A stretch of DNA of 64,000 nucleotides from a virus (lineage: Duplodnaviria > Caudoviricetes): IMG/VR virus record IMGVR_UViG_3300009168_000007, positions 534-64,533 of that record; one strand, 5' to 3'. The position numbers and the translations under genes are program-made. Under the pieces are notes generated by a model. The model worked only from the letters and a program-made list of their open reading frames with translations, was not told where the DNA came from and searched no databases. Positions within the stretch are counted from its first letter, which is position 1, and each line of letters begins with the position of its first letter. Of the stretch, positions 25,831-27,017 are shown piece by piece.

Positions 25831-26571
25831 ATGAAGGACCATAGTTCTGTCAAAAAATATAATACCACCCAGTTAAATGTTGCCGAAACGTTCGAGCGGC
25901 ATATCTATCACCGAGATTATTTTGCCCATTACCTTAGATGGACGCACGTACTCAAATGCGCGCGTAGTGCAATGAAAATACTTGATGTGGGGTGTGGGTC
26001 AGGTAATCTCTACGAAGTGTTCTACCGCAACCGGTTTCAACCGAAACGATACCTCGGGCTCGATATCAGGAAGAAAACAATCGAATTGAACCGTGTTAGG
26101 TTCCCCAAGGCCGAATTTGAGGTGCAAGATCTTTGCCGCCCGTACGATTATACCGATAAATGGGACATGATCGTCTCGTTCGAGGTGATCGAGCACATAG
26201 GCAAACAAAATGGTGAAATCTTTCTCGACAATATCGTTCGCCATGCCCACGGTAAAACGATCATCCTCCTTTCTACCCCTTGTTTTGATCCGCAAGTTGG
26301 CGCCGCAGACAACCACATGATCGAAGGTGAAGTCGGTGAGTTCACGTACCCTGAACTCAAGGAATTACTACAAAAATTCTTTGTGATCGACCGTGTGTAT
26401 GGAACGTTTGCTTCCATAAAAGATTATAAACCGAAGATGAGCAAAGCCCATCAGGAGATGTTTACTCAACTGTCCACATATTACGATAGCAACATAATGT
26501 CCGTGATCTTTGCTCCACTCTATCCCGAATGTTCTCGTAATTGCATTTGGAGGATGCATATACCAACGTGA
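25831..26571 (+). CDS. class I SAM-dependent methyltransferase
   Basis: ILDVGCGSG, YLGLDI, SFEVIEH, LSTP. Confidence 0.9.
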   Translation: MKDHSSVKKYNTTQLNVAETFERHIYHRDYFAHYLRWTHVLKCARSAMKILDVGCGSGNLYEVFYRNRFQPKRYLGLDIRKKTIELNRVRFPKAEFEVQDLCRPYDYTDKWDMIVSFEVIEHIGKQNGEIFLDNIVRHAHGKTIILLSTPCFDPQVGAADNHMIEGEVGEFTYPELKELLQKFFVIDRVYGTFASIKDYKPKMSKAHQEMFTQLSTYYDSNIMSVIFAPLYPECSRNCIWRMHIPT

Positions 26572-27017
26572 TTATTTTTGGGTTGTTGCAGAACCAATAT
26601 TTAAAGAATCCCGAACGAATGGTGGATATGGTAAAAAGATACGGGGAGGACTCCCGTGAGGTATTTACAAAACATGCCCTATTTGCTGGATGTAAAACAG
26701 GGCAAAATCTCACGAGGATCTTTGGTCCTGAAGCGAAAACATGGATATGGGTAAACTGTACGCCACAAATAGGACGTACGACGAGTGAGCGATTTCCAAC
26801 CGATCTTGATTATATTATTGGAAAGTTGGAACACTACCAACCCGATATCATCATGGCTTTCGGCGGTCAGGCACGGGACGCGATGAGAAGAATAAAGACA
26901 GATGTTCCGGTTATTTTTACTGTTCATCCGGTCAATTGGGATCATGGGTCAACCGATCGATTATATACGGCGAGAAATGAACTAGATAGATTAAAGGAGA
27001 CATTCGATGGGCAATAG
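26541..27017 (+). CDS. uracil-DNA glycosylase-superfamily-like protein
   Basis: TGQNL, QPDIIMAFGGQA and VHP motifs of the UDG-like fold. Confidence 0.55.
   Translation: MHLEDAYTNVIIFGLLQNQYLKNPERMVDMVKRYGEDSREVFTKHALFAGCKTGQNLTRIFGPEAKTWIWVNCTPQIGRTTSERFPTDLDYIIGKLEHYQPDIIMAFGGQARDAMRRIKTDVPVIFTVHPVNWDHGSTDRLYTARNELDRLKETFDGQ

Follow-up and report, generated by a model that had tools for sequence, protein, structure and literature searches.

A phage-restricted SAM methyltransferase family linked to predicted dCMP hydroxymethylases: candidate enzymes for the methylation of 5-hydroxymethylcytosine

The stretch analysed here, referred to as the window, comprises 64,000 nucleotides and corresponds to positions 534-64533 of the IMG/VR virus record IMGVR_UViG_3300009168_000007 (Duplodnaviria; Caudoviricetes). 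The source record has 64,533 bases with direct terminal repeats and is rated 100% complete; the window is the complete 64.5-kb genome of an uncultivated phage, and a search for near-identical DNA with positions 25000-33000 gave no match among cultured phages. The early and replication genes lie on the plus strand between about 21.5 and 44.3 kb. Within this block a gene for a class I S-adenosylmethionine (SAM) methyltransferase (MTase) is followed by an overlapping open reading frame (ORF) resembling uracil-DNA glycosylases (UDG) and by a fusion of a MazG-like pyrophosphatase with a deoxynucleoside monophosphate (dNMP) kinase (Table 1). Relatives of the MTase are nearly always encoded near a homologue of thymidylate synthase (TS) of the kind predicted to hydroxymethylate dCMP, and the MTase very probably works in a pathway of cytosine modification.

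The MTase scores above the cut-off of five Pfam models of class I methyltransferases (Methyltransf_23: 49.3 bits, cut-off 27). Motif I for SAM binding, LDVGCGSG, occupies residues 51-58, with D52, G54, C55 and G56 invariant in the family, and D78, the acidic residue that closes strand 2, is also invariant. The same holds for F117, E118, E121 and H122 of the block FEVIEH (residues 117-122) and for N161-H162, which are retained in both subfamilies described below. The (D/N/S)PP(Y/F) motif by which DNA N6-adenine and N4-cytosine MTases are recognised is absent, and the Pfam search gave no match to PF00145, N6_N4_Mtase or models of the PF01555/PF02384 type. Pfam and the sequence confirm the initial annotation in describing a class I MTase with LDVGCGSG and FEVIEH and without a DPPY or NPPY motif. 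Its further statement that the PC motif IV of C5-cytosine DNA MTases is missing holds for the position of motif IV, although a single PC dipeptide does exist elsewhere (STPCFD, residues 150-151); the cysteine of this block varies between C, N and V across the family.

Of 1923 candidates from a word-index search, 1650 proteins belong to the MTase family at E<=0.001. Identity is 51-61% for the best 120 homologues, which lie mostly on phage-sized contigs. By a pattern scan of IMG/VR, 472 viral stretches were found to encode a relative, and a second viral scan seeded with a distant subfamily gave 83 stretches. Among 185,579 prokaryote species, each represented by one genome, the family occurs on 11 contigs, all of them metagenome-assembled and from unrelated phyla. 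Five of 50,697 cultured or deposited phage records carry it, namely Stenotrophomonas phage AXL3 (two records), Pseudoxanthomonas phage PW916 and two spring-water assemblies. The family is phage-restricted. An alignment of 26 sequences has 51 invariant columns; beyond the Rossmann core the family is marked by the blocks YNxTQL, HRDxFAHxLRW, FEVxEH, STP, AAxNH, GTFASxxDY, YYD and APxxPxxSRNxxW, and these signatures are kept in members that are only 30% identical. The sole family member on a long bacterial-type contig (locus L118, 305,838 bases, from a metagenome-assembled genome) has no TS within 7 kb; for L118/L207 a TS homologue with the signature DCRDD, explained below, is located some 50-60 kb off, on a contig of the same genome. 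The L118 locus could represent a prophage or phage DNA binned in error.

The gene neighbourhood was compared in 81 loci of the close subfamily and 80 loci of the distant subfamily, using hidden Markov models to find TS homologues on the same strand as the MTase. These loci are the best-scoring relatives and share ancestry, and the counts do not represent independent events. In the close subfamily the distance to a TS homologue is at most 300 bp in 23 of 81 loci, at most 1 kb in 69 and at most 7 kb in 79. The idea of the initial annotation, which a lack of linkage between the two genes would have contradicted, strongly withstood this comparison. The contigs of the two remaining loci stop 1.1 and 1.8 kb past the MTase gene. 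Where both flanks of a close-subfamily locus extend to 2.5 kb or more, a TS lies within 2.5 kb in 42 of 49 cases. The corresponding number for the distant subfamily is 55 of 80 (46 of the 63 with full flanks), rising to 60 of 80 within 8 kb; ten records without a TS in this range comprise six with a PF00303 match elsewhere and four that are only 12-38% complete. When all plus-strand ORFs within 5 kb were clustered in 83 loci, including AXL3 and MW202510, TS was the sole near-universal neighbour (81 loci), followed by dUTPase (34), dCMP deaminase (32) and two MazG families (19 and 15). As a crude contrast, none of 16 loci retrieved with UDG-like homologues contains a TS homologue.

The MTase occurs in at least six local arrangements of genes. 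They include MazG-TS-deaminase-MTase, MTase-TS-dUTPase, dUTPase-MTase-TS, MTase-deaminase-TS, TS-deaminase-MTase, MTase-MazG-kinase-TS-deaminase and TS-MTase-kinase-MazG-deaminase, and the order MTase-MazG-kinase is common to AXL3, MW202510, MW202621 and the loci L114, L116 and L117. Because the locus counts are not independent, the argument for linkage is carried by this variety of gene orders together with the span down to 30% identity. The linkage between MTase and TS is near-obligate and extends across several gene orders.

The substrate type of the TS homologues was read from positions 143/146/166/169/177 in alignments with E. coli ThyA and T4 gp42. In E. coli ThyA numbering, N177D indicates cytosine substrates and L143D/E, a change connected with water access, the formation of hydroxymethyl and not methyl products, and D169N marks newly found 5-hydroxy-dCMP synthases (PMC13326640). 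E. coli ThyA reads LCRDN, the dUMP hydroxymethylases of M6 and PaMx11 read DCRDN, and T4 gp42 shares DCRDD with the TS homologues of the window, AXL3 and MW202510. Set 1 has this signature in 80 of its 82 TS ORFs and set 2 in 59 of 60, where the remaining one is cut off and shows RDD; of six distal TS ORFs, five have it and the sixth reads NCRDD. The two exceptions in set 1 are YCRDD beside an insertion (L004) and a second ThyA with LCRDN (L075). On the contig of L075 (335-1267, 3970-5265) a canonical ThyA and a DCRDD homologue beside the MTase occur together.

The window TS keeps D143, C146, R166, D169 and D177 exactly as T4 gp42 does in one alignment, and with them Cys146, Asp177, an Asp or Glu at 143 and Asp169, the residues by which dCMP hydroxymethylases are recognised. 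Its closest solved relative is the CMP hydroxymethylase MilA (8e-20). CMP-preferring MilA is distinguished by Lys133/Ala176 (PMC5175136); the window TS has Arg126/Ser167 at these positions, and CMP instead of dCMP is disfavoured as the substrate. A route to 5-hydroxycytosine was rejected, as D169 is retained in these TS homologues. Because of the DCRDD signature and the Arg/Ser pair at the MilA positions, the Asp177-type TS partners of the MTase are assigned, by sequence signature, to the dCMP hydroxymethylases and not to hydroxylases, methylases or dUMP enzymes. Of the two alternatives in the initial annotation, a hydroxylated or a hydroxymethylated cytosine, the latter agrees with DCRDD and the former has no hydroxylase-type signature behind it. 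Over its full length the window TS resembles the dUMP hydroxymethylases of M6, PaMx11 and YuA (97% coverage, 31-33% identity) and shares with them a C-terminal extension of about 160 residues, but has Asp and not Asn at position 177; in sequence it looks like a switch from U to C inside this subtype. A complex prediction with residues 1-260 of the TS homologue and the MTase, run without controls, gave no answer (score 0.00).

Natural fusions of the MTase domain were surveyed in 45 longer homologues at E<=1e-10. A precomputed PF00145 domain is present in 28 of them, and four of these, re-scanned with Pfam, have PF00145 at the N-terminus and the family MTase domain at the C-terminus. Their layout (P0280-P0315; L121:7911-10439, L122:7986-9920, L178:6798-9338) is a C5-MTase-like domain, a linker of 130-300 residues and the MTase, which keeps all motifs of the family. 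The PF00145-like part retains the Cys, the Glu and QxRxR, and its consensus reads PPCA and ESV where ordinary C5-MTases have PCQ and ENV. An intein with a LAGLIDADG endonuclease (PF14890, PF03161) is inserted in the C5-MTase-like domain of P0286, P0294, P0296 and P0310. P0017 is a fusion of dUTPase and MTase, the N-terminus of P0274-P0276 resembles the dNMP kinases of MW202510 and AXL3 (with a weak PF02223 match in P0276), and the N-terminal parts of eight other longer homologues are of no recognised kind. The fusions occupy the slot of the stand-alone MTase, beside MazG, the DCRDD TS and the deaminase. All recognised fusion partners belong to the supply of pyrimidine nucleotides or to chemistry at C5 of cytosine; fusions to a kinase or dUTPase suggest action at the nucleotide level, those to a C5-MTase action at the DNA level. 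TET/JBP (PF12851) was found in none of five records with a C5-MTase fusion, in a search that had no working positive control.

Among the cultured phages, AXL3 has the same set of genes as the window, MTase-MazG-kinase-TS(DCRDD)-deaminase and ThyX. The DNA of AXL3 was not cut by 35 of 37 restriction enzymes, only cutters of AATT and TTAA being active, and the authors concluded that G/C bases are modified, the kind of modification being undefined (PMC7504290). All 35 failing enzymes have G or C in their recognition sites. The paper on phage PW916 annotates the genes only. Pelagiphage HTVC200P has a DCRDD TS and no MTase of the family in the 10.7-kb stretch around it, and is not among the five MTase-positive records of the 50,697. 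Since HTVC200P and T4 have no such MTase, the enzyme is an optional addition to hydroxymethylcytosine synthesis, and an optional occurrence fits what is expected of a decorating enzyme.

The AlphaFold model of the MTase (pLDDT 90.7) gave at least 500 Foldseek matches to MTases in the PDB at E<=0.001; these are generic and not discriminating. Compared with PDB sequences, the family profile matched best to bacterial Hen1 (6e-11 to 5e-10, aligned over EV(I/L)EH), followed by plant HEN1 (6e-8) and phosphoethanolamine MTases (1e-7). The metal of Hen1 is bound by E796/E799/H800/H860 (PMC10781085). This pattern of E-x-x-E-H and a distal His is also found in the MTase as E118, E121, H122 and H162, with a spacing of 3, 1 and 40 residues in the family and 3, 1 and 45 in human HENMT1. 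E118, E121 and H122 are candidate metal ligands, and H162, 40 residues past H122, is a candidate fourth ligand whose equivalence to H860 of Hen1 we infer from the spacing only. The NCBIfam models for Hen1 (TIGR04074; 26.4 bits, cut-off 340) and UbiG/Coq3 (TIGR01983; 38.7 bits, cut-off 102.95) scored below their cut-offs, the former far below; the 'UbiG-like' names of MTase homologues at JGI are automatic. The top fold match is CmoM (Z 19.1, root-mean-square deviation (rmsd) 3.6 Å, 211 residues, 10% identity). The median isoelectric point, 6.7 for the MTase family and 9.4 for the UDG-like family, hints weakly that the MTase does not coat DNA.

The UDG-like ORF has two possible starts, of which the GTG is more likely; it overlaps the MTase stop as GTGA, and the database entry is the 149-residue form. 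The ORF scored 18.3 bits against PF03167 (cut-off 24.3), and the word-index search for homologues returned only the ORF itself. An exhaustive HMMER search yielded 405 relatives at E<=0.001; PF03167 matched 18 of 41 family members at E<=0.01, with no value below 5e-5. An AlphaFold model based on 41 of the relatives has a pLDDT of 95.8 and was aligned by VIA-align to a family-4 UDG (4zbx) with Z 12.4 and an rmsd of 2.5 Å over 124 of 149 residues. All 50 fold matches listed belong to the UDG superfamily, with UdgX, family-4 UDG and MUG on top in Foldseek (E 4e-4), and a comparison with a viral structure library also entered the assignment. Structure prediction and fold search bear out the UDG fold proposed at the outset for the ORF overlapping the MTase. 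As modelled, the protein is a truncated family-4-like UDG fold without the first 35-45 residues of the solved enzymes. It shares with family 4 UDG and UdgX the fold (Z 12.4-11, rmsd about 2.5 Å over 120-127 residues), and a His-Pro sits at the putative position of motif B; it differs in being about 45 residues shorter at the N-terminus, in having no Cys cluster for an Fe-S centre and at the putative position of motif A, which reads L-Q-N-Q-(W/Y) instead of the consensus G-E-x-P-G. After strand 1, Q8 is invariant and N9 at least 90% conserved in the family, and H120-P121 are invariant after the last strand; the putative equivalence of LQNQY to motif A and of HP to motif B is one of position in the predicted secondary structure, not of residue-level superposition.

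In 16 viral loci with a UDG-like homologue, found by a scan with a smaller and less diverse alignment than the 41-protein set, no MTase, TS homologue, MazG or deaminase was present, and among the MTase loci scanned at that stage a weak UDG-like ORF was seen in one (L048). UDG-like relatives adjoin PolA, a DUF3987 helicase, large N6/N4 DNA methylases or terminase, with no conserved neighbour. In two loci (L093:1974-4733, L095:2377-4989) a protein of 870-920 residues with a C-terminal N6/N4 DNA methylase domain is encoded directly upstream of the UDG-like homologue. Because MazG directly follows the MTase in the MTase-MazG-kinase relatives, with no UDG-like gene between them, the UDG-like gene is an insertion particular to this phage. 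A part for this protein in the modification pathway, as first proposed, is not supported, the MTase module being absent from all 16 loci; the gene is a separate passenger outside the conserved module. The two roles suggested for it in the initial annotation, repair of the deamination product or an attack on host DNA, are speculative. Its most likely function is a general removal of uracil or a deaminated base. This is the economical reading, as dUMP increases in a phage that encodes a dCMP deaminase. UDGs are described from phages with modified pyrimidines (PMC13697223).

The further genes of the block are listed in Table 1. The start of the MazG-kinase gene overlaps the stop of the UDG-like ORF by 11 nucleotides; Pfam and PHROGs both support the initial annotation of a MazG-kinase gene directly next to the UDG-like ORF, and the fusion is a candidate for a dCTPase joined to a kinase of modified dCMP. 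No glycosyltransferase was recognised with Pfam and PHROGs among the ten ORFs of the block, again as annotated initially. Three ORFs inside the nucleotide block are without a match and could hold further steps of the pathway. A promoter and terminator scan of 23300-29700 gave counts near the expectation from shuffled sequence and no convincing promoter 5' of the MTase. In MW202621 and the loci L026, L029, L034 and L042, homologues of the DUF932 protein are encoded at a distance of a few kb from the MTase. A second class I SAM methyltransferase of 284 residues heads the minus-strand late block; its best PDB match is CmoB (4p7c, E 1e-4), with a weak match to PF08003. This protein was rejected as a paralogue of the MTase (E 0.006), and none of the retrieved loci encodes it.

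Table 1. Features of the window around the MTase gene and in the adjoining early and late genes.
Feature	Position	Strand	Basis or remark
DUF932 / phrog_1362 protein	23805-24896	+	upstream of MTase
Class I SAM methyltransferase (MTase), 246 amino acids	25831-26571	+	Pfam, AlphaFold, neighbourhood
MTase motif I, LDVGCGSG	25981-26004	+	SAM binding
MTase block FEVIEH	26179-26196	+	candidate metal ligands
MTase N161-H162	26311-26316	+	H162 candidate metal ligand
UDG-like ORF, 149 amino acids from GTG	26568-27017 (alternative TTG start, 26541-27017)	+	predicted fold
UDG-like LQNQY	26586-26600	+	motif A position
UDG-like HP	26925-26930	+	motif B position
MazG-like nucleoside triphosphate pyrophosphatase (residues about 3-135) + P-loop dNMP kinase (from about 143)	27007-28056	+	Pfam, PHROGs
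ORF	28225-28839	+	no Pfam, PHROG or NCBIfam match
ORF	28823-29374	+	no Pfam, PHROG or NCBIfam match; no usable match in ESM Atlas
ThyX, flavin-dependent thymidylate synthase	29587-30570	+	Thy1 2e-36
PD-(D/E)XK nuclease	from 30570	+	
ORF	31484-32266	+	no Pfam, PHROG or NCBIfam match; no usable match in ESM Atlas
dCMP deaminase	32193-32747	+	Pfam, PHROGs
SNF2 helicase	from 32747	+	
Pam3 gp33/gp34-like proteins	between SNF2 helicase and AEP primase	+	
AEP primase	from 36404	+	
UvrD helicase	from 37897	+	
ThyA-type TS homologue, 403 amino acids	39917-41128	+	DCRDD signature; adjoins PolA
Family A DNA polymerase (PolA)	41263-43200	+	
Lysozyme	from 43847	+	
Second class I SAM methyltransferase, 284 amino acids	44939-45793	-	heads minus-strand late block

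In T4, cytosine is replaced by the action of the gp56 dCTPase, the gp42 dCMP hydroxymethylase and the gp1 kinase, followed by glucosyltransferases. The window phage has a similar equipment, consisting of a dNTP pyrophosphatase, a TS with the D143/C146/D169/D177 signature of gp42, a dNMP kinase and a dCMP deaminase. It differs in that the pyrophosphatase is of the MazG type and fused to the kinase, and in that no glycosyltransferase is recognised, the conserved extra enzyme being a SAM methyltransferase. Judging from family membership, a T4-style pre-replicative replacement of cytosine could operate in this phage. The MazG half of the fusion would remove dCTP, the TS homologue would convert dCMP to 5-hydroxymethyl-dCMP, the kinase half would phosphorylate this product, and the dCMP deaminase together with ThyX would keep dTMP synthesis canonical. 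The MTase, as the conserved decorating partner of the hydroxymethylase, would transfer the methyl group of SAM to the 5-hydroxymethyl oxygen and give 5-methoxymethylcytosine, either on the mononucleotide or on 5-hydroxymethylcytosine (5hmC) already in DNA. A metal with E118, E121, H122 and H162 as its ligands would do the chemistry, in the manner of O-methyltransferases of the Hen1 type. If the modification is pre-replicative, PolA must accept the modified dCTP. That the MTase O-methylates 5hmC with a Hen1-like metal site, as nucleotide or in DNA, is a tentative reading, somewhat short of an even chance. It is doubtful, though conceivable, that a large and mostly uncultivated group of phages, including AXL3 and PW916, replaces cytosine with 5-methoxymethylcytosine, a base undescribed in nature, made by a dCMP hydroxymethylase and a metal-dependent O-methyltransferase family, with the C5-MTase-like fusions as the version acting at the DNA level.

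5hmC is known to be decorated with sugars and with a carbamoyl group, and the action of the MTase would be a variant on these. The pathway to 5-carbamoyloxymethylcytosine described with MetaGPA combines a TS homologue with a carbamoyltransferase, and the main text of that article does not mention methyltransferases (PMC8670742). The window has the same combination of a dCMP-hydroxymethylase-type TS and a small group-transfer enzyme predicted to cap the 5-CH2OH group, the predicted donor being SAM with a methyl and not a carbamoyl group. In the 5mYOX/TET systems of phages, a C5-MTase, a dioxygenase and then glycosyl or other transferases decorate 5hmC or 5hmU in DNA, and 'O-methyltransferases' are named, without detail in the main text, among the domains co-occurring with phage dioxygenases (PMC13229309). 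The MTase family is likewise fused to a C5-MTase-like domain; unlike in these systems, 5hmC is here predicted to come from the TS homologue. Hen1 is the best PDB sequence relative and shares EV(I/L)EH at the end of strand 4 and the later His, but the MTase has no RNA-binding or Pnkp-associated parts, and its expected substrate is a deoxynucleotide or a DNA base. CmoM, which converts cmo5U to mcmo5U on tRNA, also acts on the C5 side chain of a pyrimidine; it differs in its target, a carboxylate, and in its low identity. A full-text literature search, with subscription journals and supplements mostly outside its range, found no paper on methoxymethyl- or methoxy-cytosine and none treating this MTase family.

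Several points weigh against O-methylation of 5hmC. The substrate, the methylated atom and the metal dependence of the MTase, and with them the chemistry of 5-methoxymethylcytosine, are inferred from sequence. In fold, the MTase comes closest to generic MTases of small molecules and tRNA, the margin of CmoM is small (Z 17.8 at rank 3, about 1.3 Z over unrelated MTases), CmoM methylates a carboxylate and not an alcohol, and Hen1 is missing from the 50 best fold matches of the model. A deoxynucleotide has no 2',3'-cis-diol, and the Hen1 analogy leaves the hold of the metal on the 5-CH2OH group unexplained. The modification in AXL3 could be on G. The window's own TS lies 13 kb downstream of the MTase and is of the 'distant TS' kind, and the samples of 80 loci consist of best-scoring relatives that are not phylogenetically independent. 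The C5-MTase-like fusion partner is also unexplained in a genome presumed to have no plain C, given that a DCRDD TS is present as well.

Linkage and fusions would fit equally well if the MTase acted in the same cytosine pathway on another atom or intermediate, i.e. on N4 or N3 of 5hmC or 5hmdCMP, with a product such as N4-methyl-5-hydroxymethylcytosine, or on O2 as in the free-base antimetabolite bacimethrin. A PF00145 partner making 5mC would leave no oxygen to methylate and favour a ring or exocyclic nitrogen; yet the fusion-type phages still carry the hydroxymethylase, and the invariant E-x-x-E-H...H and the best sequence relatives, Hen1 and UbiG, belong to O-methyltransferases. The bacimethrin pathway includes a SAM-dependent O2-methylation step. 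Bacimethrin is named among 5hmC-derived compounds in the introduction of the MilA paper, but methylation of O2 breaks G:C pairing and is ill-suited to a genome base. We consider action on another atom rather improbable, and a bacimethrin-like free-base product was kept only as a minor variant of it.

A function apart from DNA bases, as a Hen1-like RNA 3'-terminal 2'-O-methyltransferase or a cap-like, small-molecule or protein methyltransferase, would reduce the adjacency to nucleotide genes to shared timing of expression in an early gene set. Hen1 as best PDB sequence match, Z scores of 16-17 for mRNA cap N7 MTases, the GenBank label 'capping protein' on one homologue and the label 'tRNA methyltransferase' of the best PHROG match all agree with this. 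Against it, adjacency to a single type of enzyme persists through at least six gene orders and in two subfamilies that share only 30% identity; dUTPase, dNMP kinase and C5-cytosine MTase domains, but never RNA-repair domains, occur as fusion partners; the NCBIfam Hen1 score is far below its cut-off; and Pfam and PHROGs showed neither a Pnkp nor a ligase partner in the block. Such a function is improbable. Very unlikely is the use of SAM without methyl transfer, in which the protein, like CmoA in its relation to CmoX/CmoB, would supply a SAM derivative to the C5-MTase-like partner, or would transfer another part of SAM onto the base. The 28 of 45 longer homologues with a PF00145-like domain and its altered PPCA and ESV motifs would suit this idea, and a phage CmoA/CmoX pair exists (PMC12783734). 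However, no CmoA family is among the NCBIfam matches of the window MTase, Synechococcus phage S-B43 is not among the 20 records matched by the PF00145 part of P0280, and a supplier of cofactor would leave the linkage to folate-dependent TS homologues unexplained.

The question is directly testable, as the cultured phage AXL3 has the full gene set and restriction-resistant DNA. Hypermodifications of phage DNA decide which restriction and modification-dependent defences a phage escapes, and they have supplied tools for epigenetic sequencing. If O-methylation of 5hmC is true, no decoration of 5hmC would be smaller or cheaper than this methyl cap derived from SAM, and it would be a common one, with the family present in 472 and 83 viral stretches in the two scans versus 11 contigs of prokaryote genomes.

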